Source: Salinispira sp.
GTDB lineage: Bacteria > Spirochaetota > Spirochaetia > DSM-27196 > Salinispiraceae
DNA: 64,000 nt
Direction of reading: 5' to 3'
Assembly: GCA_965602015.1 (NCBI GenBank)
Contig: OZ271918.1
Span: 1,888,001 to 1,952,000 of the forward strand
The notes under the pieces were generated by a model. The model made no database searches, had not been told where the DNA came from, and was given only the letters and a program-made list of their open reading frames with translations. The translations under genes were made by a program, and so were the position numbers. Shown here piece by piece: positions 34,802 to 50,346 of this stretch (the stretch's first letter is position 1; each line of letters starts with the position of its first letter).

Positions 34802-34871
34802 GCGTTCCCCGGGGAATGACAATCCACCGAGGACATCTTTACTCCATCACAGACTGCGACCTGGGGCAAAA

Positions 34872-36344
34872 CTCACAGAACGGGGAGACAGCGCCACAAT
34901 CACCGACACTAAAATCACCATCAACCGGACAGGAACCTACCGCCACTACAGCTGGGACCTGTTAAACCGCCTGGAAAACGTCGAAGAGCTCGATGAACAC
35001 GGCAATCTGGTCGTGATAAAAGAATACGGCTATGATGTGAATAACCTGAGGATATGGGAGAAAAACCGACACGGCCAAATCACCCATTACGTCTTCGACC
35101 ACAAGGGCAACAGAATCGAACGGCACACAGACGAAAAGAGCGAATACTACATCTTCAGAAACCTCCACCACATCGCCAAACGGGTGGTAGACCACAGCAC
35201 CAACACCGAAAAGACCTACTTCTACGGCACAGACCACCTGGGAAGCACCGTGCTGATGACAGACGAAGACGGCAACGAAGTTTTCTCAGCAGAGACCACC
35301 CCCTTCGGCGACTCGGTCTCTGAGTCAGGAGCCATGGCCGACACAGAAAACCTCATGTACACCGGAAAGGACCTAGATGAAGATACCGGGCTGTACTACT
35401 TTAATGCACGCTGGTATGACCCAACGGTGGGTAGGTTTATAAGCGAGGATCCGGCGAGGTTTGGCGCGAACTGGTACCGGTATGCTGCAAGCAATCCCCT
35501 CAAATACTTCGATCCAACCGGACTGAATGAAGTGAGCTGGGATACAACGATCTTCGATGCAGGGGATTATCACACAGATACCCCTGAAAATGAGAATTAT
35601 GAAAACGTAGAAGAAACAACAACAGAGGTTGCCACCTATGAGGAAATTACTGAACAGATCAATCACGTCTCCACTGGTATTTCTGCCCAGGAAACGATAA
35701 CCCAGCAGTCAGAAAAACTCGTTGAACTATCACAACAAAATACCAGTGAGATGACTCTTGATGAATTTCTATCTCACCAGCAGGAGATGCAGGATTTAGC
35801 AAAAGAGTTGTTACAAGGAATCCTGGATTATCGTGCAGCGGGATATAATAGCTCAAATTCAGATGAAAACGAAAATTCTCAGAACAATCAAAACATCGAT
35901 ATCGATAGCCGTGGTTTTATTATCTCTTTTGGCTTCACAGGTTTTATAGGAGCCGGTGGTGGCTCCTCGATATCTGGAGGTATTAATTTTGGTATAGATT
36001 TTAACAACGGGGATGTTTTAATGAATTTCTCTGCAGCCCCAAGCGCAGGTCTATTAGTTGGTGCATCTGGGTTTGCTGGTGGGTATTTAGCTATTACACC
36101 TATGGAAACTGATCCTGATGTCCTTGCTGGCAATTTTCTACAAATTGGTCTTTCTGCGGGTGAAGGAAAAGGAATGGGCATTGATATAGCTCTTCCTTTT
36201 CAGCAGGGTGTTAATCCAACCTTGACTGGATCATACGGTGCTACAATAAAATTCCCGATTCCAGGTGAATTTCATATTTATGGAGGTCAAACAACAGTGA
36301 CTGATTCGATCAAAATATTCGATTTTAGACCATTCCGAAAATGA
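34872..36344 (+). CDS. Orphan Rhs cassette 1: N-truncated Rhs core plus C-terminal toxin 1 (ORF call 35013-36344; homologous frame starts about 34872)
   Basis: DHLGST, YTGKDLDEDTGLYYFNARWYDP..GRFISEDP, PLKYFDPTGL; Gly-rich hydrophobic tail. Confidence 0.88.
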   Translation, partial: LTERGDSATITDTKITINRTGTYRHYSWDLLNRLENVEELDEHGNLVVIKEYGYDVNNLRIWEKNRHGQITHYVFDHKGNRIERHTDEKSEYYIFRNLHHIAKRVVDHSTNTEKTYFYGTDHLGSTVLMTDEDGNEVFSAETTPFGDSVSESGAMADTENLMYTGKDLDEDTGLYYFNARWYDPTVGRFISEDPARFGANWYRYAASNPLKYFDPTGLNEVSWDTTIFDAGDYHTDTPENENYENVEETTTEVATYEEITEQINHVSTGISAQETITQQSEKLVELSQQNTSEMTLDEFLSHQQEMQDLAKELLQGILDYRAAGYNSSNSDENENSQNNQNIDIDSRGFIISFGFTGFIGAGGGSSISGGINFGIDFNNGDVLMNFSAAPSAGLLVGASGFAGGYLAITPMETDPDVLAGNFLQIGLSAGEGKGMGIDIALPFQQGVNPTLTGSYGATIKFPIPGEFHIYGGQTTVTDSIKIFDFRPFRK

Positions 36345-36724
36345 TATTTCAAACACTTTTTATGTACTTATCATTCCTGATCGTGCTTCTATCAATAATA
36401 ATAATCAGAAAGAGGAATCAAGCAAAAGCTAGGATCACATCGGAGAAAGCTCAGAAGGGTATTATTTGTGGTGTAAGGTATAATGGGTTGAGCGCTTCAG
36501 CTCCATTTGCATCGCTGAGAATTTTTGAAAATTCGATTCAAGTCAATATTTTAGGTAGGACTGCGCTCTATAAGGATCTAAGTAATCTGGTATCCACTGA
36601 AAAAAAGAAAGGATTATTTGACCTTGGTCTCGAACTAAGATTTGATTCTGGAGAAAAAATAATTATTTGGACAAAATATTCTTATTCGCTTTTTGATTTG
36701 CTAATGGAAATAGAGCATACATGA
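36341..36724 (+). CDS. Putative immunity protein 1 (membrane-anchored)
   Basis: ATGA overlap with the toxin stop; AT-rich; N-terminal TM helix. Confidence 0.65.
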   Translation: MIFQTLFMYLSFLIVLLSIIIIRKRNQAKARITSEKAQKGIICGVRYNGLSASAPFASLRIFENSIQVNILGRTALYKDLSNLVSTEKKKGLFDLGLELRFDSGEKIIIWTKYSYSLFDLLMEIEHT

Positions 36725-36728
36725 TCAA

Positions 36729-36797
36729 CCCACAAGACCTGACTTGAGCTGCGCCGGATCCAATCCCGGCGTCAGCTCCAAGTATCCTTCTTATGGG
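36729..36797 (-). repeat. 69-bp attC-like palindrome, copy 1
   Basis: CCCACAAGACCTGACTTGAGCTGCGCCGGATCCAATCCCGGCGTCAGCTCCAAGTATCCTTCTTATGGG; one substitution relative to copies 2 and 3. Confidence 0.85.
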
Positions 36798-36931
36798 GGT
36801 TGAGCCGGCAAACGAGTTCTTTGAAATACGTCAGTCAGTGACGGACCCATCGAAGAGCATCTTGTTCCCGTAGAGCAAGAACTCTTCTGCTGACCGCTGA
36901 TGCTTGCAGCAGCCTGCAGAAGAGAAAAACG

Positions 36932-37303
36932 TCAGACCACAAAACGCTTGAAGTCCACCCGGCTGCCGTTGAAGTTGACCAGGTAGCCCACCCGGATGCC
37001 CGAAAGCCTGAGGTAGTTTATGAGCTGGGCTTCCATAACAGCCGTGAGCTTTGAAACGCTCTTGAGCTCGAGAATGACCTTGCCCTCGACCACCAGGTCG
37101 GCAATGTATGCTCCGGCAAGCTCCCCTTTGTAGTACACCGGATAGACCTTCTGCTGTTCCACCGTGAGATTTAACCTCCGGCACTCAATAACCAGCGCAC
37201 CCTCGTACGCACTTTCCAAAAGCCCGGGACCCAGGATGTTGTGCACCGAATACAACGCCCCTACCACCGTGTATGACAGTTCCTTGAAAAGATACTCAGC
37301 CAT
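36932..37303 (-). CDS. GxxExxY protein (PD-(D/E)xK nuclease superfamily), copy 1
   Basis: LGPGLLESAYE, ADLVVEGKVILELKS, AQLINYL, GYLVNF; SD AAGGAGG. Confidence 0.92.
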   Translation of the reverse strand: MAEYLFKELSYTVVGALYSVHNILGPGLLESAYEGALVIECRRLNLTVEQQKVYPVYYKGELAGAYIADLVVEGKVILELKSVSKLTAVMEAQLINYLRLSGIRVGYLVNFNGSRVDFKRFVV

Positions 37304-37698
37304 GCTGACCTCCTTTTTCAAGGAAGCAGTCTCGCAGCGACGAGCGGTCAATGCCCGATAATTGGCGTACCGCAGCCATCATGCATGGCGAGGAACGCCA
37401 ATATGAAGAGCGAAGCGCGGCTTGACCGCGAGGAGCGGAGAGATACACTTGAAAAAAACGGAGGAAGCCAGACAGCTCAAGCCCGTGAAATAAGGCGCGA
37501 ATCCTCGCGCCCCATTCTTTCCTTTCTTACAACATACCATCAGCAGAGAAATCCCTTTTACAAAACTGCCCCGGTCACCAAACCAAATCCGTGAATATTG
37601 GTGCTGATACGTGGTACACCCCAACTCCCTAATACGTGGCTTACCAACCTTATCGCTGCTGACCAAAAATCTACAATCTCGGCCAAATCCAATCGGCA

Positions 37699-38315
37699 AT
37701 GATCATCACAGAAGCCGGAAGCGAAGAATGGAAACCCAATCCCCTTCAGCGAAGCCATGGGGTAGTGCAATCCGACGTCCTGGGCACCACACCATTCACC
37801 ATAGACCAGAGGGACCTGGAACTCACCACCACCGCAGACAGCCTGGTCATAGACACCGGCTTCGGCTACACCCTCAAACGCATTGAAATACCCTTTGAGG
37901 CCCTCGATGCAGCCCAGATGAGGCCGGAAACCCTCCAGGTCTATACCGCGCTATACAACAGCGAAATAGCATACGAACGCCAGGAAGAGGCTCACATAAG
38001 CATCAGCCACAACACCGTAACCATCACCTTTCCGGCACCAGTGTTTACCCGCTACGTCAAACTCCATTCAACCGTCCACACCCTCGCTGACGATGGGGAT
38101 GAGCGAAATACTGGTACGATATTCCAGGCCGATGCCAGCGAAATCATCGTCACCGCCATCACCGGGGGCCGCAACGAGTTCTACAACTACACCCCCGACG
38201 GCAACCGCTCCATGCGAAGCATCCTCGCCGGCAGCATGCAGAGTGAACAATACCAGTACTACCCCAACTCAGACCTGCTCCAATACGACGGAACCTACTA
38301 CTATGCATACGATGC
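37699..38315 (+). pseudogene. Rhs cassette 2, 5' fragment truncated by IS66
   Basis: Ends in GRNEFYNYTPDGNR...YYYAYD, shared with cassettes 3 and 4, then abuts the IS66 TIR. Confidence 0.8.
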
Positions 38316-38327
38316 GTAAGCGTCAAT

Positions 38328-39908
38328 TTAAGCCTGCACGATTGACTTCAGCTCCAGTAATTCGTCTTTGATGTTCCAGGGCAGCAGATCTTCCCAGTTC
38401 CCGGAATCCCCAATCTCTGGCGCTTTGGTGAAGACATGCACCAGATACCCATAGGGATTCAGTCCGTTCTGTCGGGCTGTCTCGATAAGCGAAAACATAA
38501 AACAGGAGCTTTCAGCGCCTCCCGGGCTTCCCGAGAACAGCCAGTTCTTTCGGCCGAGAACAAAAGGACGGATTGCATTCTCCGCGCCATTGTTGTCCGG
38601 GGTCAGATGCGGACTCTCTACATATTTCATGACCTTATCCCATTGCGACAGGGCGTAGGTCACCGCCTGCCCGACAGCGCTTGATGGACGAACGCTTAGC
38701 GCTTTCTTTTCGAGCCAGGCTTTGAATCTCTCTGCTACCGGGGCAATGCGGGCTTTGCGCTTCTGGGCAAACTCATCATCACTCAGGTTTTGGCTACGCA
38801 GCTCTTTCTCAATGCGGTAGAACTCGGCGATCTTCGATATGGCCTCATGAGCGCTTCCGGCTTTCTTTGAGGATTTGCCCGCTTCAAAGAATTTCCGGCG
38901 GACATGGGCCATACACCCCACGTGAATAATGTCAGGCCGGTCCTTCAATGTCGTTTCATACCCCACATAGCCATCGGTTTGCAGGTAGCCTGAAAAACCT
39001 GAGAGATAGGCTTTCGCATACTCCGATCCGCGGCTTCGGTGGTAGGCATAATCCACCACCGGTTTCCCAGGCGGACCTCCCCGGGCAAGCCACATATAGG
39101 ACTTGCTGGTGTTGGATTTCTCCGGCTCGTTCATAACCTGAACGGTTGTTTCATCCATTTGAATGACTGGGCCGGATTCTAACTGCTGTTTGAGCAGATC
39201 CTTCAGCGGCTTCAATGCCTGATACGCCTTCTGCTGCCAATTGGACATGTCCTGCCGGCTGATCCTAGCCCCAACCCGCTCAAAGCGCTTTTCCTGGCGG
39301 TAGTACGGCAGGTGATCGACGAATTTATTCTGAATAATGAAGGCCAGAAGCTCCGGGGTCGCAATGCTCTTGGGGATGATGGACGGCGGAACCGGCGCAA
39401 TGCGGAACACCGGTTTGTCTTCATCCCCGGAACCCTCGCAGTTCCGGCAGGCGTACTTGGGCCTGATATGCCGTTCGACGAAAAACTGCTCGGGGATGGT
39501 TTTCAGTTTTTCGCTGACTTCTTCGTCAATTTTGGAAAGCTCGTGCCCGCAGGCGCAGCGTTTCTGGTCTTCTGAGATGTCGTGGATCACATCGACCCTG
39601 GGAAGGTCATCGGATAAAGGCTTTCGCCCCCGCTTCTTCCGCGTATGTGAGGTGACCGTGGTGAGAGAACTGTCGGTTTCCGGCTCATCGGGCGGTGTTG
39701 ACTGAATCTCCCGTTCCTCAAAGAGCATGGCCTGCAGCAGCTCTTCAGCTGATTCACTGCTTCGGGCAAACTTCCGGAACCGGGCCAGCTTGAGCTGTTC
39801 CTGAAGGTCTTCGATTTCCAGTTCCTGCTCTGAAATTCTGGAACCGAGTGCGACTATGTGAGCCTGGACTTCCTCGGGTAACTGTTCAATCTCCGCCGCA
39901 CTCAGCAT
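38328..39908 (-). CDS. tnpC: IS66 transposase TnpC
   Basis: HLPYYRQ, QMDET, LQTDGY, GCMAHVRRKF, DNNGAENAIR, GRKNWLF. Confidence 0.96.
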   Translation of the reverse strand: MLSAAEIEQLPEEVQAHIVALGSRISEQELEIEDLQEQLKLARFRKFARSSESAEELLQAMLFEEREIQSTPPDEPETDSSLTTVTSHTRKKRGRKPLSDDLPRVDVIHDISEDQKRCACGHELSKIDEEVSEKLKTIPEQFFVERHIRPKYACRNCEGSGDEDKPVFRIAPVPPSIIPKSIATPELLAFIIQNKFVDHLPYYRQEKRFERVGARISRQDMSNWQQKAYQALKPLKDLLKQQLESGPVIQMDETTVQVMNEPEKSNTSKSYMWLARGGPPGKPVVDYAYHRSRGSEYAKAYLSGFSGYLQTDGYVGYETTLKDRPDIIHVGCMAHVRRKFFEAGKSSKKAGSAHEAISKIAEFYRIEKELRSQNLSDDEFAQKRKARIAPVAERFKAWLEKKALSVRPSSAVGQAVTYALSQWDKVMKYVESPHLTPDNNGAENAIRPFVLGRKNWLFSGSPGGAESSCFMFSLIETARQNGLNPYGYLVHVFTKAPEIGDSGNWEDLLPWNIKDELLELKSIVQA

Positions 39909-39950
39909 GGGTGAAATTCTAGCATAAAGGGATTAATCGATGGAAGAGGA

Positions 39951-40298
39951 TTAGTTGCATTCGGCATACTGAACTGCTTTGTGGGCGTGCCAAAAATCAA
40001 TGCCATCGAGCAACATCTTGAGTTCGCCCACAGTGATCTGCCGGGCCTGCTCCTCGGTGTTCGGCCAGGGAAAGCGGTCCTTTTCCAGACGCTTGAGCCA
40101 TAGACAGAATCCGTTGCGGTCCCAGTACACGCATTTGATCAACCGACGGTCCCGGTTGCAGAACAGGAACAGGGAGCCTGACATCGCCGACCGGTTCATC
40201 TGCTGTTCAACAATAACAGACAGACCATTCACCTGTTTGCGCATGTCCGTTACCCCCGGGCGGACATAGATTTCCAATCCGGTGAGATCCAGCATCAT
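39951..40298 (-). CDS. tnpB: IS66 accessory protein TnpB
   Basis: TDMRKQVNGL, LFLFCNR, WDRNGFCLWLKRLE. Confidence 0.95.
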   Translation of the reverse strand: MMLDLTGLEIYVRPGVTDMRKQVNGLSVIVEQQMNRSAMSGSLFLFCNRDRRLIKCVYWDRNGFCLWLKRLEKDRFPWPNTEEQARQITVGELKMLLDGIDFWHAHKAVQYAECN

Positions 40299-40597
40299 AC
40301 AAAAGCCGCCAGTACTTCCCGCAGGCGGGCGGAGGAGATTCCATCTGCCAACAGAATGCGAAACCGCCGATCGATCTCGATGATGATTTCCGTCGAACAG
40401 TCTGAGGTGGCAGGTGGCGTGATTCGGACCAACTCGGGTAGCGCTGCTTGGGCGGCCGAAGCCTTTTTTAGCCGCTTCATCCAGTAATGCAGGGTTGAAA
40501 GCTTGATATCCCGGGCCCGACAGAACTCTTTCTGCGTCTGTCCGCTTTCCCGCCACTGGCTAATGACCTCTTGCCACTGTTCAATCTTCGCATCCAT
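40295..40597 (-). CDS. tnpA: IS66 accessory protein TnpA
   Basis: WRESGQTQKEFC...STLHYW HTH. Confidence 0.88.
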   Translation of the reverse strand: MDAKIEQWQEVISQWRESGQTQKEFCRARDIKLSTLHYWMKRLKKASAAQAALPELVRITPPATSDCSTEIIIEIDRRFRILLADGISSARLREVLAAFV

Positions 40598-40668
40598 AAT
40601 TCCTCCAGGTGGAAGAATTATTTCATTTCAGGCTCAGGCTGTGCAGGGCCTGGTAAATTGACGCTTAC

Positions 40669-41254
40669 GTTTGTTCAGGCAAATACTGAAATAGTTATTC
40701 GGCGGGGTGCGCGGGGTACTCCTTACTCATTTCCTTATACACGTTCAGATGGTACAACTATTCAAGTGAAGCACCCAGATGGCGAGTATTATGACGGATT
40801 GCTGGATTTACAAGCTTTCGGAGTTTCATTATTCGATGATCCATTAATTGTACAGACAGTTGCAACTGATAATCTGAAAGATTCAAGAAATGTCATCTAT
40901 GCCCCTGCAGGAAGATATTCAGGAGGTTTATATGATGATCATTATAGCGAAGTTTATGATGAATATATATGGCTCCAAAATCCGGAACTTGGTATAGGAT
41001 TGAATACAGGTGTGTATTTACATTTAGGTAGTAACACACTGTCTGCATTGAGCTGGGCATGTCAGATGCTCTACCGCACTGACTACAATGAACTCTCCGA
41101 TAGGATGAAATCAGGGGGATATCGTTTTGAAGGTAGACGCCCATTTCGTGGTGCAACTGAAGTAAAACCGTCGCACTATATTGATGTTCGAATATATGGA
41201 GATGCACTACCGCCAGAGTCTGAATACAGCTCTCATGGATTTAGTTTTTATTGA
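40669..41254 (+). pseudogene. Remnant C-terminal toxin 2, possibly an L,D-transpeptidase-fold peptidoglycan toxin
   Basis: Open frame from the IS66 end; YLHLGSNTLSALSWAC resembles an H-x(n)-S-x-G-C motif; AT-rich. Confidence 0.55.
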
Positions 41255-41265
41255 GGTTAAAATGT

Positions 41266-42054
41266 ATGAAATGTAATTTAAAGACAATTATATTTATAAG
41301 TTTGCTTTTTTCTCTTTTAAGCTGCAACAAGATAAATGCGTTAGATTTAACTGGTAGAGAGTACACAGCTTGGAATATTACGTTCAGATTCCAAAAGACA
41401 GAAGTAATGATTGAACAATATGACGACACTGCATACACAGGACCAACAGGAATTGTAAATTACTCAATTGCTAACAGATCAGGGGTTGACTATTTGATTT
41501 TAGATTCAAATGGTTACGAAGTCGAATATCTAATTATCCAAGATGATTGGTTATTATTTTTATATGATGGAGATCGAAAGGATCCAATATTTATCGGAAT
41601 TACTTCGCACCCGAGTGATTTGGTTGCATTTTCGGTTTTAGGAGATTTGCCGTTAGACTATGAAGCGAGCTCATATTATCAATTTGGGCAAGAAATGTAT
41701 CCCCCCGAAAATCTAGGGCGTATAGAGTTATTTCAGCCTTGGTGTGAAGGAGTTGAAGGTTTTGGCGTCGGAGAAACAATTATTGTCAGAAACGCTGATA
41801 CTACTATCACTCTTTCAAATGGCTTTGTTTCATACTCACGCCCAGAATTATACGAATGGAACAGCAGGATAAAATCTATCAAGGTTCGTTCTTTGTTAAC
41901 CGATGAAAGCTTTATTGTTGATTTAGAGGATACGCCTCACTTACAGTACTTCGTGCTACCTGTAGAAGGCAAATCTGATTATGAAATTACAATTCTTGAG
42001 GTGTATCCAGGGGAGAAATTTGAGGATGCATGTGTGAACTTCATTTTTTCGTAA
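41266..42054 (+). CDS. Lipoprotein with NADase-type/discoidin-like glycan-binding domain; putative immunity protein 2
   Basis: Lipobox LLSC; PWCEGVEGFGVGE...NGF...NSRIK...LEDT...ILEVYPGEKFEDAC; SD GAGG before ATG 41266. Confidence 0.7.
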   Translation: MKCNLKTIIFISLLFSLLSCNKINALDLTGREYTAWNITFRFQKTEVMIEQYDDTAYTGPTGIVNYSIANRSGVDYLILDSNGYEVEYLIIQDDWLLFLYDGDRKDPIFIGITSHPSDLVAFSVLGDLPLDYEASSYYQFGQEMYPPENLGRIELFQPWCEGVEGFGVGETIIVRNADTTITLSNGFVSYSRPELYEWNSRIKSIKVRSLLTDESFIVDLEDTPHLQYFVLPVEGKSDYEITILEVYPGEKFEDACVNFIFS

Positions 42055-42120
42055 GAAAAATTGAAATTCTAATTAATAGCATGCTGCATTTCAGTTCATT
42101 TCTTGTATTGCCGTATACAC

Positions 42121-42189
42121 CCCATAAGACCTGACTTGAGCTGCGCCGGATCCAATCCCGGCGTCAGCTCCAAGTATCCTTCTTATGGG
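42121..42189 (-). repeat. 69-bp attC-like palindrome, copy 2
   Basis: CCCATAAGA...TCTTATGGG, identical to copy 3. Confidence 0.88.
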
Positions 42190-42323
42190 GGTTGAGCCGG
42201 CAAACGAGTTCTTTGAAATACGTCAGTCAGTGACGGACCAATCGAAGAGCATCTTGCTCCGGCCGGGCAAGAACTCTTCTGCAGACCGCTGATGCTTTCA
42301 GCAGCCTGCAGAAGAGAAAAACT

Positions 42324-42695
42324 TCACACTACAAAACGCTTGAAGTCCACCCGGCTACCGTTGAAGTTTACCAGGTAGCCCACCCGCAGCCCAGAAAGCC
42401 TGAGGTAGTTTATGAGCTGGGCTTCCATAACTGGAGTGAGCTTGGAAACACTTTTTAGTTCGAGGATGAGCTTTCCTTCAATTACCAGGTCTGCAATGTA
42501 CGCCCCGGCAAGCTCGCCTTTGTAGTACACCGGATACACCTTCTGCTGTTCCACCGCCAGATTCAGCCTGCGACACTCAATAACCAGCGCACCCTCGTAC
42601 GCGCTTTCCAAAAGCCCGGGACCCAGGATGTTGTGCACCGAATACAACGCTCCCACCACCGTGTAGGACAGTTCCTTGAAAAGATACTCAGCCAT
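42324..42695 (-). CDS. GxxExxY protein, copy 2
   Basis: 123 aa, about 5 substitutions relative to copy 1. Confidence 0.92.
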   Translation of the reverse strand: MAEYLFKELSYTVVGALYSVHNILGPGLLESAYEGALVIECRRLNLAVEQQKVYPVYYKGELAGAYIADLVIEGKLILELKSVSKLTPVMEAQLINYLRLSGLRVGYLVNFNGSRVDFKRFVV

Positions 42696-42794
42696 GCTGA
42701 CCTCCTTTTTTCAGGAGGCAGTCTCGAAGTGTCAACGCCGGAATGAAATTGCAGTTTTTCACCGGAGTTAAATTGCAGACTTCCGGCAAATTTT

Positions 42795-43556
42795 TTAGAA
42801 GTCAACGACTCCGATTTTCATTCGATCCTTCATCCGATACGAGTCTCCTTTCAGGCTGATCACATGGGAGTGATGAAGCAGCCGGTCCAAAGTGGCCGTA
42901 GCAACTGCGTCATCAGTCATGATTTCTCCCCACTTCCCGAATACTTTGTTGCTGGTCAGAATGATTGATCCATGCTCATAGCGGGTATTGATCAGCTGGA
43001 AAAACAAGGCTGCCTGCTCAGCATTCAGGTTTTCATACCCAACTTCATCAATCAACAGAACGTGGGGTTTGCCAAACCAGGTCAGTTTGTTTTTCAATCT
43101 TCCCTGATCCCGGGAACGCTGTAATCGTTCAAGCAAATCAAGACAGCTGATGAAATAGGCCGTATACCCATTCATACATGCCTTCTGTCCAAGCGCTGTC
43201 ATGAGGTGCGTTTTACCCAATCCACTGGGACCAAGCAGAATGACATTCTCTTTACGTTCAATGAACGCAAGGGTGGACAGTTCGTTGAACTGCTTGTGTG
43301 TAAGACCGCCTTTCGGCCATGACAGATCAAAGGATTCAAGATTCTTTCCCTGGGGAATTCCTGAAACCTTCAAGCGGGTTTTGGCCATTCGTTCCTTTCG
43401 GGGAATCAGTTCCAGATCAATGAGTTCTCCGATCGCTTCAATCAGAGGCGCATCCTGATTCACCTGGCTTGAGAGAAAACTGTCCAGACCGGCAGCCATG
43501 AAGCTCAAACCCAACTCTTCCATACGGGCTGTAATCATTGTGCTTTTACTAGTCAT
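42795..43556 (-). CDS. istB: IS21 helper ATPase IstB
   Basis: GPSGLGKTHL, LLIDEVGY, TSN, LDRLLHH, GDSYR. Confidence 0.96.
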   Translation of the reverse strand: MTSKSTMITARMEELGLSFMAAGLDSFLSSQVNQDAPLIEAIGELIDLELIPRKERMAKTRLKVSGIPQGKNLESFDLSWPKGGLTHKQFNELSTLAFIERKENVILLGPSGLGKTHLMTALGQKACMNGYTAYFISCLDLLERLQRSRDQGRLKNKLTWFGKPHVLLIDEVGYENLNAEQAALFFQLINTRYEHGSIILTSNKVFGKWGEIMTDDAVATATLDRLLHHSHVISLKGDSYRMKDRMKIGVVDF

Positions 43557-44803
43557 GAGGCCGCCTCCTGCAGTGCAAACAAGCGGTCGTACTCCCCAGG
43601 TGAGCGGACATCAACATCGGTAGAAACCTTTATCCGTTTTCTTCTCTTGGGTATCCGGTACTGCCTTTTCCAGAGCTCGGTCAGCGCCGCTGAGTGTTCA
43701 GCCAGGTAGAACCGTTGATTTCGCAATTCGAGGTTAAGCATGAAGGTTCGGATGATCTGATCCTCTGATGATACTTCGGCCTCACCGGTGAGCGGATCGA
43801 TACGTACAATTACCTCTGCACCAATGAATTGCGGGTGAACGCTGTACCAGTTGTTTCTCACCCGTACCAGAGATTCACCGGAGACACGCACATTGGTCGG
43901 TTTCCGGTAATCAAACGGCTGCGTTGGTAAGGGGGTAAGGAAAGCCTTTTCATGCGTAAAGCGTTCTGATCGGCTTTCATTGAGCCCGCCGATGACTCTG
44001 TGGCTGATATCCTCGCACCAGGTGATGACTGCTTCGTTTAACTCAATCAGTCCAGCTGGCAGTGCTTTGTGCTCGATCCAGAAGTTGTTCTCGTAGAACT
44101 GGATGAACCGTTCGACCTTTCCTTTGGTCTGAGGCCGGCGGACCTGGCATCGGCGGGGTGTGAATCCATAGTGCCGGGCCAGAGACAGCAGGTGCTTGTT
44201 GACCTGCCATTTCTCCTCTGCGGCCTGGTAGATAAAGGCGGTTTTCATGTTGTCGTACAGGATTTCTTCCGGCACCCCGCCAAAATATGTGAATGCCAAT
44301 ACGTGGCACATCAGAAAGGTGGCCATGTCCATGCTCGTGGTATGAATGACAAACGGCATTCTCGAGTAGCCGAATACCATGACAAAGGCATAGAGTTTCT
44401 GCCACCGTCCGTCCACCAGCTGTTTTCCCAGGATTTTCCAATCCACCTGAGCCTGGTAGCCCGGTTCGGTTTCGAACCGGATAACTGCCTGTTTTGTGAT
44501 ATCTGCAGCCTTCCTGGCAGCATAATCCCTGAGGATTGTGACCCCGCCATCGTATTTCTGTTTTCGCAGGTTCCTCAACAGAACCTCCCGATTGAAGGAC
44601 GGGTCTTCCTCGAGTATAGTGTCGATGTAGGGTTTGAACGGATCGAGCTTGCTCGTGTAATTCCGCTTCTTTCGAGACCTTGAAGGCTCTGCAAGGTAGT
44701 AGTGAACCATGCGTTCACTTTTTCCCAGGGCTTCGGCGATCTGACCGATTCTCTTACCCTGTTGTTTCAACATCTGTGCTTCATGCATCAGTAGCTCCAG
44801 CAT
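43553..44803 (-). CDS. istA: IS21 transposase IstA
   Basis: RFETEPGYQAQVDW, YDNMKT, PQTKGKVER. Confidence 0.96.
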   Translation of the reverse strand: MLELLMHEAQMLKQQGKRIGQIAEALGKSERMVHYYLAEPSRSRKKRNYTSKLDPFKPYIDTILEEDPSFNREVLLRNLRKQKYDGGVTILRDYAARKAADITKQAVIRFETEPGYQAQVDWKILGKQLVDGRWQKLYAFVMVFGYSRMPFVIHTTSMDMATFLMCHVLAFTYFGGVPEEILYDNMKTAFIYQAAEEKWQVNKHLLSLARHYGFTPRRCQVRRPQTKGKVERFIQFYENNFWIEHKALPAGLIELNEAVITWCEDISHRVIGGLNESRSERFTHEKAFLTPLPTQPFDYRKPTNVRVSGESLVRVRNNWYSVHPQFIGAEVIVRIDPLTGEAEVSSEDQIIRTFMLNLELRNQRFYLAEHSAALTELWKRQYRIPKRRKRIKVSTDVDVRSPGEYDRLFALQEAAS

Positions 44804-45248
44804 TTTAGGGCGTGCTCCTTACTTGAATGATTGTGTGGTAACAACCATTACAAGGTAGCATCGCCCTTTTTTTCAAGCCGGAGTCTGCAATTTTAGTCCG
44901 GTGATTTCCTGCAATTTAGCACCGGTGATGACACGAAGCGACGAGTGGTCAACGCCCCTGAGCGAAGCGCGGCTTGACCGCGAGGAGCGGAGAGATACAC
45001 TTGAGAAAAACGGAGGGAAGCCAAGGCAAAAAAGCCTGAAAATGTCGGGCAAATGCGGTGCGAATCCTCGCGCCCCATTCATTCCTTTCTTTCAACATAT
45101 CGTCAGCAGAAAAATCCCTTTTGCAAAACCGCCCCGGTCACCAAACCAAATCCGTGATTATTGGTGCTGATACGTGGTAGACCCCAACTCCCTGATACGT
45201 GGCTTTCTCTCATCCCCCCGACTTTAGAAAATTCTCACCGCCGAACTT

Positions 45249-45925
45249 ATGGGCCGCAACGAGTTCTACAACTACACCCCCGACGGCAACCGCTCCATGC
45301 GAAGCATCCTCGCCGGCAGCATGCAGAGTGAACAATACCAGTACTACCCCAACTCAGACCTGCTCCAATACGACGGAACCTACTACTATGCCTATGATGA
45401 GAACGGCAACCTCACAGAACGGGGAGACAGCGCCACAATCACCGGCACTAAAATCACCATTAACCGGACATTAACCTACCGCCACTACAGCTGGGACCTG
45501 TTAAACCGCCTGGAAAACGTCGAAGAGCTCGATGAAGAAGGCAATCTGGAAGTAATAAAAGAATACGGCTATGATGTGAATAACCTGAGGATATGGGAGA
45601 AAAACCGACACGGCCAAATCACCCATTACGTCTACGACCAAAAGGGCAACAGAATCGAGCGGCACACCGACGAAAGAAGCGAATACTACATCTTCAGAAA
45701 CCTCCGCCACATCGCCAAACGGGTGGTAGACCACAGCACAAACACGGAAAAGACCTATTTCTACGGCACAGACCACCTGGGAAGCACCGTGCTGATGACA
45801 GACGAAGACGGCAACGAAGTCTTCTCCGGCGAAACCACCCCCTTCGGCGACTCGGTATCCGAATTAGGACCCATGGCCGACACAGAAAACCTCATGTACA
45901 CCGGAAAGGACCTGGATGAAGATAC
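45249..45925 (+). pseudogene. Rhs cassette 3 core fragment truncated by IS3
   Basis: Near-identical to 48279-48955 (3030-bp offset); breaks at YTGKDLDED at the IS end. Confidence 0.85.
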
Positions 45926-45975
45926 TGAACCGCCCCGGCTTTACCGGAGACAAAATCTTGTGAGAGGATGGAGTC

Positions 45976-46302
45976 ATGGTAAAGAAAAACAGCAGGTTTT
46001 CTGAGGAAGTTAAGGAGCGGGCAATCCGCATGGTATTCGCCGCCAAAGGTGAATATGATTCTCAGTGGGCCGCAATTGAGTCGATAGCTGAAAAGATAGG
46101 CTGTACTGCAGAGACGTTACGGCGGTGGGTTCGCCAAGCCGAGAAAGATAATGGTAGTCGGGAGGGACTTACAACCGACGAGAAGAAGCGAATCAAGGAG
46201 CTCGAGCGGGAGAACCGGGAGCTCAAGAAAGCCAATGAGATTCTACGTCTGGCTTCCGCATATTTCGCGAAGGCGGAGCTCGACCGCCAACACAAGAAAT
46301 AG
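45976..46302 (+). CDS. IS3 family transposase OrfA
   Basis: RFSEEVKERAIRMV...SQWAAIESIAEKIGCTAETLRRWVRQ...ANEILRLASAYFAKAE. Confidence 0.93.
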   Translation: MVKKNSRFSEEVKERAIRMVFAAKGEYDSQWAAIESIAEKIGCTAETLRRWVRQAEKDNGSREGLTTDEKKRIKELERENRELKKANEILRLASAYFAKAELDRQHKK

Positions 46303-47198
46303 TCTGCTTCATTGATGAACACCGCGATGACTATGGGGTCGAGCCGATTTGTACTCAGGTGCCAATCGCTCCTTCGGTGTACTACGAACAGAAAAAGCGA
46401 GTAAAACACCCTGAAACAGCTCCCGCAAGGGTAAAGCGCGATGAAATCCTGAAGCCAGAGATCCAGAGGGTTTGGGATGAGAATTATGAGGTTTACGGCG
46501 TTCGCAAGGTCTGGCACCAGCTGAAGCGAGAAGGATTCCAGATCGCACGATGTACCGTGGCCCGTCTCATGGCTGTCATGGGGCTTAAAGGCGTCATACG
46601 AGGCCGCAAGGTGCGAACCACAGTACCGGACCCGAAAAATGAACGTCCGCTCGATTTGGTGCACAGGGAATTCAGTGCCGACCGTCCGAATCAGCTGTGG
46701 GTGGCGGATTTCACTTATTGCGCGTCTTGGGTGGGTTTTGTATATGTGGCATTTATCATCGATGTATTTTCACGAATGATCGTCGGATGGCGTGCCTCGA
46801 GGTCCATGAGCGCAGAGCTGACGCTGGATGCTCTGGAACAAGCCCTGTGGGCAAGGCAACCTGAAAATGGGCTGATCCACCACAGTGATCGTGGGAGCCA
46901 GTATCTGTCAATCCGGTATTCTGACCGCTTAGCAGAAGAAGGCATTGCCCCATCTGTTGGGAGTGTAGGCAGCTCATATGACAACGCGCTGGCTGAAACC
47001 ATAAACGGACTGTACAAATCCGAAATGATCTACCGTAAAGGACCGTGGAAAAACCTGGATGCTATTGAGGCTGCTACGCTGGAATGGGTAAGCTGGTACA
47101 ACAATAAACGGATTTATGAAATCCTGGGATATATGCCTCCGGCAGAGTTTGAGAAGGCATATTATGATCAACTGCAAGACGCAGCCAGCGGGCTGTAG
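46299..47198 (+). CDS. IS3 family transposase OrfB (probably fused to OrfA by -1 frameshift)
   Basis: YGVRKVW, LWVADFTY, HHSDRGSQY, SYDNALAE; homologous frame starts at ATA 46299. Confidence 0.92.
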   Translation: MVCFIDEHRDDYGVEPICTQVPIAPSVYYEQKKRVKHPETAPARVKRDEILKPEIQRVWDENYEVYGVRKVWHQLKREGFQIARCTVARLMAVMGLKGVIRGRKVRTTVPDPKNERPLDLVHREFSADRPNQLWVADFTYCASWVGFVYVAFIIDVFSRMIVGWRASRSMSAELTLDALEQALWARQPENGLIHHSDRGSQYLSIRYSDRLAEEGIAPSVGSVGSSYDNALAETINGLYKSEMIYRKGPWKNLDAIEAATLEWVSWYNNKRIYEILGYMPPAEFEKAYYDQLQDAASGL

Positions 47199-47317
47199 TC
47201 ATACAAAACACTCTCCGGGATTCCCGGGGCGGTTCAGTCTGAAACACATTGCAAAAAAAAGATGTTGCTCTAAAGTTCATAAACAATCATTTATCATGAT
47301 TACCATAAAGCATTTTC

Positions 47318-47386
47318 CCCATAAGACCTGACTTGAGCTGCGCCGGATCCAATCCCGGCGTCAGCTCCAAGTATCCTTCTTATGGG
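47318..47386 (-). repeat. 69-bp attC-like palindrome, copy 3
   Basis: Identical to copy 2. Confidence 0.88.
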
Positions 47387-47520
47387 GGTTGAGCCGGCAA
47401 ACGAGTTCTTTGAAATACGTCAGTCAGTGACGGACCAATCGAAGAGCATCTTGCTCCGGCCGGGCAAGAACTCTTCTGCAGACCGCTGATGCTTTCAGCA
47501 GCCTGCAGAAGAGAAAAACT

Positions 47521-47892
47521 TCACACTACAAAACGCTTGAAGTCCACCCGGCTACCGTTGAAGTTTACCAGGTAGCCCACCCGCAGCCCAGAAAGCCTGA
47601 GGTAGTTTATGAGCTGGGCTTCCATGACCGGCGTAAGCTTAGAAACGCTCTTGAGCTCGAGAATGACCTTGCCCTCGACCACCAGGTCGGCAATGTATGC
47701 TCCGGCAAGCTCCCCTTTGTAGTACACCGGATAGACCTTCTGCTGTTCCACCGTGAGATTTAACCTCCGGCACTCAATAACCAGAGCCCCCTCGTACGCG
47801 CTTTCCAAAAGCCCGGGACCCAGGATGTTGTGCACCGAATACAACGCCCCTACCACCGTGTATGACAGTTCCTTGAAAAGATACTCAGCCAT
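47521..47892 (-). CDS. GxxExxY protein, copy 3
   Basis: 123 aa; nucleotide mosaic of copies 1 and 2. Confidence 0.92.
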   Translation of the reverse strand: MAEYLFKELSYTVVGALYSVHNILGPGLLESAYEGALVIECRRLNLTVEQQKVYPVYYKGELAGAYIADLVVEGKVILELKSVSKLTPVMEAQLINYLRLSGLRVGYLVNFNGSRVDFKRFVV

Positions 47893-48278
47893 GCTGACCT
47901 CCTTTTTCAAGGAAGCAGTCTCGCAGCGACGAGCGGTCAATGCCCGATAATTGGCGTACCGCAGCCATCATGCATGGCGAGGAACGCCAATATGAAGAGC
48001 GAAGCGCGGCTTGACCGCGAGGAGCGCAGAGATACAATGAAAAAACGGAGGGAAGCCAGACAGCACAGCTCAAGCCCGTGAAATAAGGCGCGAATCCTCG
48101 CGCCCCATTCATTTCTTTCTTTCAACATACCGTCGGCAGAGAAATCCCTTTTACCAAACTGCCCCGGTCACCAAACCAAATCCGTGAATATTGGTGCTGA
48201 TACGTGGTAGACCCCAACTCCCTGATACGTGGCTTTCTCTCATCCCCCCGACTTTAGAAAATTCTCACCGCCGAACTT

Positions 48279-49745
48279 ATGGGCCGCAACGAGTTCTACA
48301 ACTACACCCCCGACGGCAACCGCTCCATGCGAAGCATCCTCGCCGGCAGCATGCAGAGCGAACAATACCAGTACTACCCCAACTCAGACCTGCTCCAATA
48401 CGACGGAACCTACTACTATGCCTATGATGAGAACGGCAACCTCACAGAACGGGGAGACAGCGCCACAATCACCGGCACTAAAATCACCATTAACCGGACA
48501 TTAACCTACCGCCACTACAGCTGGGACCTGTTAAACCGCCTGGAAAACGTCGAAGAGCTCGATGAAGAAGGCAATCTGGAAGTAATAAAAGAATACGGCT
48601 ATGATGTGAATAACCTGAGGATATGGGAGAAAAACCGACACGGCCAAATCACCCATTACGTCTACGACCAAAAGGGCAACAGAATCGAGCGGCACACCGA
48701 CGAAAGAAGTGAATACTACATATTCAGAAACCTCCGCCACATCGCCAAACGGGTGGTTGACCACAGCACAAACACCGAAAAGATCTACTTCTACGGCACA
48801 GACCACCTGGGAAGTACCGTGCTGATGACAGACGAAGACGGCAACGAAGTCTTCTCAGCAGAAACCACTCCCTTCGGCGACTCGGTATCAGAATTAGGAC
48901 CCATGGCCGACACAGAACACCTCATGTACACCGGCAAGGACCTGGATGAAGATACCGGGCTGTACTACTTTAATGCACGGTGGTATGACCCGGGGACCGG
49001 GCGGTTTATAAGCGAGGATCCTGCACGGTTCGGTTCGAACTGGTATCGGTATGCAGCGAGCAATCCCCTCAAATACTTCGATCCAACCGGATTGAATGAA
49101 GTGAGCTGGGGTACGAGCATATTCGATGCCGGGGAATTTCATACAGAGAGTAGTGAGAACTATGAAAACGCAGAAGAAACAACGACAGAAGTTGCTACCT
49201 ATGAGGATCTTACTGAGCAGATCAATCACGTCTCCACTGGTATCTCTACCCAGGACACGATAACCCGACAGACAGAAAAATTAGCTGAGCTATCACAACA
49301 AGATACCAGCGGCATGACGATTGATGAATTTCTTGCCTTCCAACAAGAGATGCAGGATTTAGCGAAGGAGCTGCTCCAAGGAATCCAGGATTATGAAGCT
49401 GCGGGGTATGACACTGATAGAGTGCTCACTGGTTTAGCACTAAACGAATCAAATGGGCACCAAAGCGCTTCGTGGGAAATAAATCGAAATACAATATGGG
49501 GCATAGCTGAAATTATCGGTGGTGGAACAGTAATTGGATTATCATGGGTTTCAGCAGCTTCGCTGGCACCTACAACAGGGGGGACATCAGCGATGGTTGG
49601 CTACAATGGCACATTATTTGGGAGCGCTCTATTGGCACATGGATTAAACAGAGTAACTGGAAATACAAACCAAACTGTAATCGAGGATTTAAAGCAAATC
49701 ATTACGCCGCCAATTGCAGAACTTGGAAAAATAAGGACGGAATAG
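48279..49745 (+). CDS. Orphan Rhs cassette 4: Rhs core plus C-terminal toxin 4
   Basis: YD-like repeats, DHLGST, YYFNARWYDPGTGRFISEDP, PLKYFDPTGL; hydrophobic Gly/Ala-rich tail. Confidence 0.9.
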   Translation: MGRNEFYNYTPDGNRSMRSILAGSMQSEQYQYYPNSDLLQYDGTYYYAYDENGNLTERGDSATITGTKITINRTLTYRHYSWDLLNRLENVEELDEEGNLEVIKEYGYDVNNLRIWEKNRHGQITHYVYDQKGNRIERHTDERSEYYIFRNLRHIAKRVVDHSTNTEKIYFYGTDHLGSTVLMTDEDGNEVFSAETTPFGDSVSELGPMADTEHLMYTGKDLDEDTGLYYFNARWYDPGTGRFISEDPARFGSNWYRYAASNPLKYFDPTGLNEVSWGTSIFDAGEFHTESSENYENAEETTTEVATYEDLTEQINHVSTGISTQDTITRQTEKLAELSQQDTSGMTIDEFLAFQQEMQDLAKELLQGIQDYEAAGYDTDRVLTGLALNESNGHQSASWEINRNTIWGIAEIIGGGTVIGLSWVSAASLAPTTGGTSAMVGYNGTLFGSALLAHGLNRVTGNTNQTVIEDLKQIITPPIAELGKIRTE

Positions 49746-49975
49746 TGATAGATTTTTACTTAATCTCAGGCACAATAATAATTATAATTTTCATGTCGGT
49801 TGGGCTTTTAAAATCAACTCCTGACAAAATTGATAAAACTCGTGATGATTTAGATAAAAATCAGAAGGAGAAACTAAAAAGAGTGGCGAAGATATCCGCA
49901 ATAATTGGATTTATTATGGCCACACTTATGCTTATTCTTCTAGTTATCGGTTTTTTGCTTCCGAGTTCAAAATAG
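49745..49975 (+). CDS. Putative immunity protein 4 (76 aa, two TM helices)
   Basis: GTG overlapping the toxin stop (TAGTG); two hydrophobic segments around a charged loop. Confidence 0.65.
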   Translation: MIDFYLISGTIIIIIFMSVGLLKSTPDKIDKTRDDLDKNQKEKLKRVAKISAIIGFIMATLMLILLVIGFLLPSSK

Positions 49976-49984
49976 CTGAGCCCC

Positions 49985-50052
49985 CCCATAAGACTGACTT
50001 GAGCTGCACCGGATCCAATCCCGGCGTCAGCTCCAAGTATCCTTCTTATGGG
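49985..50052 (-). repeat. attC-like palindrome, copy 4 (68 bp)
   Basis: One deletion and one substitution relative to copies 2 and 3. Confidence 0.85.
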
Positions 50053-50335
50053 GTTGAGCCGACAAACGAGTTCTTGGACATACATCAGTCAGTGACGGAC
50101 CAATCGAAGTGCGGTTTGACCGCGATGAGCTGAGAGATACAATGGGAAAATCCGGAGGGAAGCCAGACAGCACAGCCCAAGTCATAGGGAGTAAGGCGCG
50201 AAACCTCGCGCCCCATTCATTCCTACTCTTTCAACCTACCGTCAGCAGAGTATTCACTTTTGATAGGCGGGCCCAGTCACCAAACCCAATACGTGAAAAT
50301 GGGTGGGCATCCGTGGTAGCACCAAACTTCCTGAT
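49985..50335. repeat. Conserved inter-cassette module, copy 4, lacking the GxxExxY segment
   Basis: GGACCAAT-CGAAG joins directly to TGCGGTTTGACCGCG; remainder is a diverged homolog of modules 1-3. Confidence 0.85.
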
Positions 50336-50346
50336 TTGAATTAAAA

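Follow-up and report, generated by a model that had tools for sequence, protein, structure and literature searches.

Variant attC-family hairpins at the boundaries of orphan Rhs tip/immunity units in Salinispira sp.

Background

By which route are the variable tips of Rhs proteins and their immunity genes exchanged between loci? The model of C-terminal displacement needs a circle, and how that circle is made is a question posed along with the model (Jackson 2009, PMC2935791). An array of orphan Rhs fragments in a spirochaete, Salinispira sp., raises the question anew, as each of its units ends in a hairpin resembling attC, the site of integron cassettes. The window analysed here comprises 64,000 nucleotides (contig OZ271918.1, positions 1,888,001 to 1,952,000); an earlier note, made from its letters alone, had read the array as a candidate cassette-shuffling system built of attC-like sites and GxxExxY nucleases.

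Results and discussion

The description of the 15.5-kb array between purD and rlmB as four orphan Rhs tip/immunity units was borne out, as was the presence of a palindrome at the end of every unit (4/4). Unit 1 consists of a 5'-truncated Rhs core with a glycine-rich tip (34865-36344, plus strand; open reading frame 35013-36344), whose Rhs homology begins at the identical core position to both sister arrays located elsewhere in the genome, and of an AT-rich gene for a putative immunity protein of 127 aa (36341-36724, plus strand), a role suggested by its position; the protein is without a Pfam match. These are followed by the first variant attC site (36730-36796, minus strand; core AAG/CTT, spacers 7/6, one change in R') and by a conserved module (36797-37642, no strand assigned) with hairpins on either side of a GxxExxY/PDDEXK_3 gene of 123 aa (36932-37303, minus strand). 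In unit 2 a longer upstream Rhs fragment (37699-38315, plus strand) with a weak F5/8 type C match is interrupted by an IS66 family element (38316-40668, minus strand), beyond which lie a tip remnant (40669-41254, plus strand), a putative immunity gene with a lipoprotein-like N-terminus and a PF25302 domain (41251-42054, plus strand), site 2 (42122-42188, minus strand; AAG/CTT, 7/6) and the second GxxExxY gene (42324-42695, minus strand); an IS21 family element (istA/istB; 42730-44933, minus strand) has inserted into module 2 with a 5-bp target duplication. Unit 3 retains an Rhs fragment (45249-45925, plus strand) interrupted before the core end by an IS3 family element with an ALIL frameshift signal (45926-47236, plus strand), site 3 (47319-47385, minus strand; AAG/CTT, 7/6) and the third GxxExxY gene (47521-47892, minus strand); its tip and most of its immunity gene are gone, as had been noted, and the IS3 element sits at the gap. 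Unit 4 carries an orphan Rhs core with a hydrophobic tip (488 aa; 48279-49745, plus strand), a small, hydrophobic putative immunity gene, assigned by position (49742-49975, plus strand), site 4 (49986-50051, minus strand; AAG/CTT, 7/5) and a module with an internal deletion (50052-50338, no strand assigned). The GxxExxY gene is thus convergent in units 1-3 and missing from unit 4, again as described.

The three IS elements, missed in the earlier note, occupy about 5.9 kb of the array and qualify its claim of an N-truncated Rhs core in each unit: this holds for units 1 and 4, where TIGR03696 (the Rhs-associated core, ending DPxG) scores above cut-off, but in units 2 and 3 the core end was lost at the IS element, unit 2 keeping an upstream Rhs piece and the tip remnant on the two sides of IS66. 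The 3' end of the array lies just before the rlmB stop codon, and in the two remaining genomes of the genus, G001 and G002, purD adjoins rlmB. In the contigs from the source sample, unique parts of the array have close to single-copy depth, and its two outer junctions are bridged; coming from one sample, these contigs give non-independent support, and no single piece spans the array.

With a core running to DPxG, a variable tip, a small downstream gene and no N-terminus, the units have the features of orphan Rhs tip/immunity modules. The statement that the window holds no full-length Rhs gene proved correct and extends to the whole 3.87-Mb single-contig genome, where neither a full-length parent rhs, upstream of the array or elsewhere, nor a VgrG-type gene was found; other genomes of the class have open frames of 3,200-3,500 aa that contain the same Rhs core. 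Lacking a parent rhs, the arrays may here now be at most an immunity store or donor pool. That the tips are toxic and the downstream genes protective is hinted at by an NlpC/P60 domain in one tip of array 2 and by the tip remnant of unit 2, which has no Pfam match and appears YkuD/Tlde1-like by language-model features (scores 0.90-0.94), a lead only.

The palindrome copies measure 66-67 nt from box to box (about 69 with flanking pairs) and fold with z scores of -3.8 to -7.1, 0/200 shuffles being as good. Their attC anatomy, with R and L boxes, appears on the minus strand, antisense to the Rhs genes; a plus-strand reading via the outer AAC and GTT was rejected, as it has no L box and its AAC varies among copies. 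A 7-bp R helix and a 3-bp L stem are followed by an extrahelical base, 6 bp and a second extrahelical base, both on the same arm, an arrangement that agrees with the attC layout described in PMC5027507. On the bottom strand the outer extrahelical base is T and the inner one C, where G is usual. The R''/R' 7-mers are fully paired (7/7) in 7/8 copies of this genome, the unit 1 copy having one A-G change. All 8/8 copies read AAG/CTT in the core, not AAC/GTT; AA/TT is retained and the first base altered on both arms, so that the conserved AAC/GTT triplet of attC is absent. The central spacers (7/6 or 7/5) likewise fall outside the 5-6 nt per arm expected of attC; in relatives they are 5/5, 5/6 or 6/6. 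A literature search for tests of a 7-nt left spacer, two above the canonical length, found none; in a synthetic site, shifting both extrahelical bases one position outward increased recombination threefold (PMC7439510). The palindrome is therefore attC-like as an attC-family hairpin marking a sharp cassette boundary, but not in its triplet and spacer lengths. Because the first triplet base need only be identical in both partners (Frumerie 2010, PMC2811028), the hairpins look like a separate attC class, set apart by the crossover base.

The module is not scattered away from Rhs genes: all copies (8/8) lie within the three Rhs arrays. At the DNA level, a comparison of the module with 60 relatives gave two matches only, both in the GxxExxY region, and the palindrome was absent; the protein and covariance-model searches used thereafter revealed Rhs-linked sites. 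Among 142 Rhs cores, whose loci were fetched by Rhs protein similarity, 14 had a site within 2.5 kb, compared with 0/426 in shuffles, and the crossover base was non-G in 13 of these 14 sites. As a control, the same parser found AAC/GTT in 58/58 sites of 29 intI-proximal loci. The crossover base is C in this genome and A in most other lineages, versus the canonical G. The crossover pair was intact in 21/21 aligned sites (T-A 12, G-C 5, C-G 4), a count inflated by the parser, which demanded AA/TT and rewarded crossover-base pairing. A non-G base is not obligatory, since the Rhs-linked sites of G248, G222, G351 and L231 (twice) are of the canonical G type. Five sites were excluded as ambiguous or not toxin-linked: L206, L227 (register unclear), L224, L198 and L190. 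At 128/142 cores no site was detected by the parser, which also misses some true sites, and Rhs tip switching thus mostly proceeds without such a site. In G187 a site lies behind the immunity gene of a 2033-aa Rhs open reading frame. A covariance model (R1) trained on 19 Rhs-linked sites also picks up canonical integron arrays; its outer helix is absent, mixed spacer lengths having misaligned the alignment, and it is skewed to short, non-G sites, so that its matches in 4/99 genomes of the order are examples, not rates. Run on 151 genomes sampled across the phylum, the same model yielded no further Rhs-linked site, and two exact-pattern scans of viral contigs, weak because of their narrow patterns, gave 0 matches.

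The earlier note had found no integrase, which is correct for the window, but the genome encodes an intact integron integrase (IntI; positions 1742714-1743973 of the genome's contig) 179 kb from the array, with a canonical array of its own and scoring 380 bits against a cut-off of 265. It is one of five tyrosine recombinases of the genome, none of them near an Rhs array. The Rhs arrays are not complete integrons, which have intI next to the array; with four same-strand sites and intI 179 kb off, the locus would be a CALIN only if variant sites count as attC. In array 2, a canonical attC of the family found in the genome's integron array lies between vapBC and hicB. The ordinary integron integrase, acting in trans, is the likely recombinase of the sites, and for this reason integron biology, in a variant form, describes the locus better than a new nuclease system does. 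IntI was above cut-off in 14/17 genomes with a toxin-linked site and also in 10/11 Rhs-bearing genomes without a site in the stretches fetched; its co-occurrence does not discriminate between the two groups.

Similarity between module copies ends 0-3 nt beyond R' in this genome and is lost equally abruptly past R' in two other lineages. Homologous recombination cannot make a junction 0-3 nt past R', which is thus not attributable to it. Within the modules, 2165/4465 site pairs are incompatible; comparison of the copies thereby shows that homologous exchange occurred among them, and such mosaics are not the outcome of one simple tandem duplication, the history that would have spoken against the earlier reading. 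Together with the approximately 1.6 kb of homology common to the units, these incompatible pairs indicate that homologous recombination alone can reorder units. The array ends do not coincide with the site, and IntI therefore does not explain the arrival of the three arrays; no repeated chromosomal motif accounts for their shared left junction, where a G/TT crossover would fit the sequence. The source-sample contigs, a type of data that drops rare forms, contained no joint attributable to excision; they held an IS-free module and two long joints, which we take to be units of the two sister arrays (the letters between the sides are missing).

We consider the chances evenly balanced that IntI excises tip cassettes as circles which re-enter rhs by homologous recombination. 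Two variant sites with the same crossover base would be recombined by IntI, releasing the tip/immunity module as a circle; homologous recombination would then bring the circle back into a matching rhs core, with a swap of the toxin tip. A non-G crossover base would keep the variant sites apart from the G-type attI and attC sites of the main array, an insulation that we infer by extrapolation from IntI1 mutants. Taken one step further, spirochaetes might possess a second, insulated integron channel, in which one IntI shuffles C- or A-keyed toxin cassettes apart from the main array and supplies the circle of Rhs C-terminal displacement; we put this forward as a tentative proposal, with somewhat less than even prospects.

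A weaker case can be made for the hairpins being disarmed attC relics, which would have been joined to the tip/immunity cassettes when these arose, have lost IntI competence through the altered core and spacers and are now passively copied, all shuffling being due to homologous recombination and IS elements. The mosaic module copies, the 7/6 spacers of this genome, the lack of sites at most Rhs tips, the three IS insertions with deletions in the window, the missing parent rhs and the site-bearing genomes G003 and G185, in which IntI was not found, are all in keeping with it. Decay, however, is not expected to re-pair both arms in several lineages with three different bases while the L-box geometry is kept; moreover, many sites retain canonical 5/5 or 5/6 spacers, and a canonical cassette site is present within one array.

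It is rather improbable that the sites, although attC-derived, are used by the tandem tyrosine recombinases of elements which in some relatives carry Rhs tips, or by a hairpin-cutting nuclease (GxxExxY) joining new tips to the module at the hairpin base. Rhs fragments do directly follow tandem tyrosine recombinase genes in L127 and L222, in L120, L106 and L126 such genes lie nearby, and the G222 site follows such a tandem-recombinase/Rhs unit, but the four non-IntI tyrosine recombinases of this genome are all away from the Rhs arrays and the conserved features of the sites are those that IntI reads. The GxxExxY protein is a clear family member (TIGR04256, 135 bits against 35; PF13366, 128 against 22; a single-sequence structure model with pLDDT 47 was set aside), its PD-(D/E)xK-type motif is intact and its gene lies beside the site in several lineages. 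Nevertheless, 61/66 loci of the proteins most closely related to it lack an Rhs core within 4 kb (5/66 are near Rhs), neither Rhs nor a site accompanies a diverged copy in this genome, many Rhs-linked sites have no GxxExxY gene nearby, and toxin-antitoxin pairs sit in the slot otherwise held by it. The dedicated nuclease role suggested in the earlier note is thus not supported; by gene context GxxExxY is probably cargo, interchangeable with toxin-antitoxin genes. Finally, a function of the hairpin in RNA, ending or stabilising transcripts past the immunity gene with attC resemblance reflecting origin only, is very improbable: the hairpin does follow the stop codon of the immunity gene at a short distance, in either orientation, but no U-tract follows it, the Rfam matches were limited to the IS3 frameshift signal and one chance match, and both extrahelical bases and the R-box AA/TT, needless for a terminator, are retained.

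Immunity arrays associated with recombinases in Bacteroidales also grow by displacement; there the recombinase is encoded in cis and attC is not known, whereas the units described here have attC-family sites and a distant intI. CALINs (Cury 2016, PMC4889954) likewise have at least two attC-shaped sites far from intI with IntI encoded elsewhere, and their units, too, include toxin-antitoxin genes and IS elements; our loci differ from them in a crossover base of C or A that is matched by the partner base, in spacers of up to 6-7 nt, in the frequent inversion of the sites with respect to the variable genes, in a cargo made up of Rhs core fragment, tip and immunity gene, and in the long conserved module that lies between units. 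Orphan Rhs arrays (Jackson 2009, PMC2935791) share the GC-richer core fragment, the AT-rich variable tip, the downstream gene, the tandem arrangement and exchange via homologous recombination in the core, but a site-specific boundary is present here and no parent rhs is left. Replacement of base 1 of GTT, with recombination predicted solely with a same-base partner, has its counterpart in the variants of Frumerie 2010 (PMC2811028); those were laboratory mutants with IntI1, in contrast to natural sites in several lineages with longer spacers and another integrase. Vibrio T6SS effector-immunity arrays, too, contain immunity genes accumulated by displacement and have been likened to integrons, with no evidence of an integrase according to PMC5361080. 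Our full-text literature search, covering few subscription journals and no supplements, found no description of such Rhs-linked variant attC sites.

Conclusions

With these loci, the question of the circle posed in 2009 can be put to a named enzyme and a defined site in a simple assay. If the proposed role of IntI is true, they would be natural cases of att sites with changed specificity, so far described as laboratory mutants, and a class of cassettes may escape integron surveys that look for GTT-type sites. The long-postulated circular intermediate of Rhs C-terminal displacement would then be supplied by the integron integrase.

Rhs arrays of the source genome

The four units described in the earlier note between purD and rlmB are borne out, each with a Rhs fragment, an AT-rich tip, a small downstream gene, the palindrome and a conserved module. 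Absent from its list were three insertion sequences, which occupy ~5.9 kb of the array: IS66 in unit 2, whose core end is lost across it, IS21 inside module 2, and IS3 in unit 3, whose tip and immunity gene are lost across it. Because purD and rlmB are neighbours in both other genomes of the genus, the array was inserted in this lineage. A 34-nt hairpin of modules 1 and 3 (window 37365-37398) has an identical copy beside a tRNA-like stretch on the same contig (C1:1616999-1617032); at roughly the position of this hairpin, other copies of the module contain short inserts that differ from it.

The module is not scattered over the genome: all eight palindromes lie within three Rhs arrays (the window array, C1:3338744-3349904 and C1:3788418-3796609), which together comprise nine Rhs units with differing tips. 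All 7 TIGR03696 matches fall inside these arrays, in open frames of <550 aa, and the genome yielded neither another RHS repeat nor a VgrG-type gene. Two adjoining very long ORFs (3827 and ~2005 aa; C1:2149179-2166666) show no Rhs core matches. The three arrays (starting at window 34865, C1:3349904 and C1:3788418) begin at an identical base of the Rhs core, and a housekeeping gene in the same orientation has its stop 10-183 nt before this start; the flanks are otherwise unrelated, except that two of the starts have five further bases in common. A few bases separate the IS66 insertion in unit 2 from this common point. On the coding strand, orphan Rhs fragments (window 34865-35520, 45249-45925 and 48279-49090; also at locus L076) show a strong excess of A and C at the 5' end (AT skew ~+0.4) and become G/T-richer near the core end.

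The palindrome as a variant attC site

The palindrome folds far better than shuffled sequences. Its minus strand reads R'' (CCATAAG), a 7-nt spacer, a 3-bp stem, an extrahelical base, 6 bp and a second extrahelical base, followed by the apical stem-loop, L', a 5-6-nt spacer and R' (CTTATGG). It matches the L-box geometry of attC sites as given in PMC5027507, but it has AAG/CTT instead of the canonical triplet AAC/GTT, and its left spacer is 2 nt longer. Among the copies in this genome, similarity stops within ~3 nt of R', where the differing immunity-side sequences start.

The absence of an integrase reported by the earlier note holds within the window but not at genome scale, as an intact integron integrase (IntI; 380 bits against a cut-off of 265) lies 179 kb from the array, next to an AT-rich cassette array whose attC sites form a canonical family of their own. 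This complete chromosomal integron (C1:~1714000-1743973) has at least nine canonical attC sites of 100-155 nt, and its AT-rich cassettes include toxin-antitoxin-like pairs. A canonical attC of the same family is located inside the second Rhs array (L001:7516-7640, minus strand). It has vapBC on one side and, on the other, an inverted hicB region, which adjoins the right half of the module.

Sites in related genomes

Relatives were searched with a parser of fixed geometry and AA/TT that left the crossover base free, downstream (at least 700 nt) of 142 distinct Rhs cores, whose loci had been collected by protein similarity outside the source genome. A site was found behind 14 of the 142 cores versus 0 of 426 two-letter block shuffles, a count limited by short contigs in many cases and by real sites that the parser misses (e.g. 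L020, L068). The triplets were AAT/ATT in eight, AAA/TTT in three (for which an alternative register puts C at R'), and AAG/CTT, AAA/CTT and AAC/GTT in one each. Around intI genes (29 loci), all 58 parsed sites, from 14 loci in 11 genomes, were AAC/GTT, and one of them itself lies behind a Rhs module; 13 further array sites of one family comprised 12 AAC/GTT and one AAC/ATT. In two in-register alignments the crossover pair was paired in 21 of 21 rows, with three pair types, although the parser favours such pairing and the rows were picked from parsed sites by spacer length; one row is an integron control, and two have no recognised toxin pair directly in front of them.

Sites occur either way round, close downstream of the immunity stop codon, and one is also found behind the gene that follows a 2033-aa Rhs ORF (G187). 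The window layout recurs in G105, where the slot beside the site holds GxxExxY, a BrnT pair or a presumably HigBA-like pair, and at L231 with canonical AAC/GTT sites. As read from the ORFs, sites in G002 appear to lie behind non-Rhs toxin-like pairs too. Two loci of that genome (L212, L213) carry an array of polymorphic-toxin-like units other than Rhs, which combine a repeated core with variable tips and have lipoprotein-like partners; behind them come C-type sites (crossover base C) and genes that we take to be HicA-like or Rpn-like. Elements at L222, L127 and L120 combine a primase-like gene and two tyrosine recombinases in tandem with a Rhs tip/immunity pair directly behind, and may be a separate vehicle for tip delivery. 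Within one canonical integron array (L314, G231), R' of a site is often complementary to R'' of the next, which is the expected trace of cassette mobility and usable as a positive control.

Of the 151 genomes sampled from the class, 53 gave an IntI match, 50 of them over the cut-off. Among the 17 genomes with a toxin-linked site, 14 carry an IntI that passes the cut-off and G120 a partial one, and none was found in G003 or G185; since IntI also occurs in 10 of 11 Rhs-bearing genomes without a site in the stretches fetched, this co-occurrence is compatible with IntI-mediated excision but no test of it. At 5 of 66 loci of GxxExxY relatives a Rhs core lies no more than 4 kb away, and two of these five are duplicates of arrays counted before. 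The source genome holds a diverged, frameshifted copy with neither Rhs nor palindrome alongside (C1:1270120-1270487). In the literature searched, the name GxxExxY came up in two papers, once in each, and the passage in 10.1101/2021.01.26.428298 states no function.

A possible mechanism of tip exchange

Homologous recombination alone can reorder units, and on the sequence evidence it is demonstrably active among module copies of the source genome, 2165 of 4465 informative site pairs being incompatible among seven copies. A repeated sharp junction at R' is, however, beyond what it can create. We consider evenly balanced the proposal that IntI would excise tip cassettes as circles, which would then re-enter by homologous recombination; such re-entry does not depend on the orientation of a promoter, and this would account for the occurrence of sites either way round. 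The arrays' common start point in the Rhs core is not accounted for by this site model.

The first base of the triplet must only be the same in both partners (Frumerie 2010; PMC2811028), and shifting the two extrahelical bases outward by one position improved recombination of one synthetic site, with little or no further gain for two others (Nivina 2020; PMC7439510). From these findings, C-type and A-type sites would be expected to recombine with sites of their own type and only poorly with the G-type main array. That the re-keyed sites thereby form a channel insulated from the main array is a tentative reading, which we think somewhat less likely than not. Related work includes PMC2935791, PMC5361080, PMC4889954, PMC3607928, PMC13183296 and 10.1101/2022.02.06.479319, and supplementary attC tables could contain such sites; 10.1101/2025.05.08.652813 nowhere mentions integron, attC, recombinase or integrase.

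The sites of the source genome are the most deviant among those seen and a parent rhs is lacking, so the system may be dormant there even if live elsewhere. Across the lineage, we regard as real a variant uniting two known kinds, attC-bounded cassettes with polymorphic-toxin tips, in which the crossover base is re-keyed.
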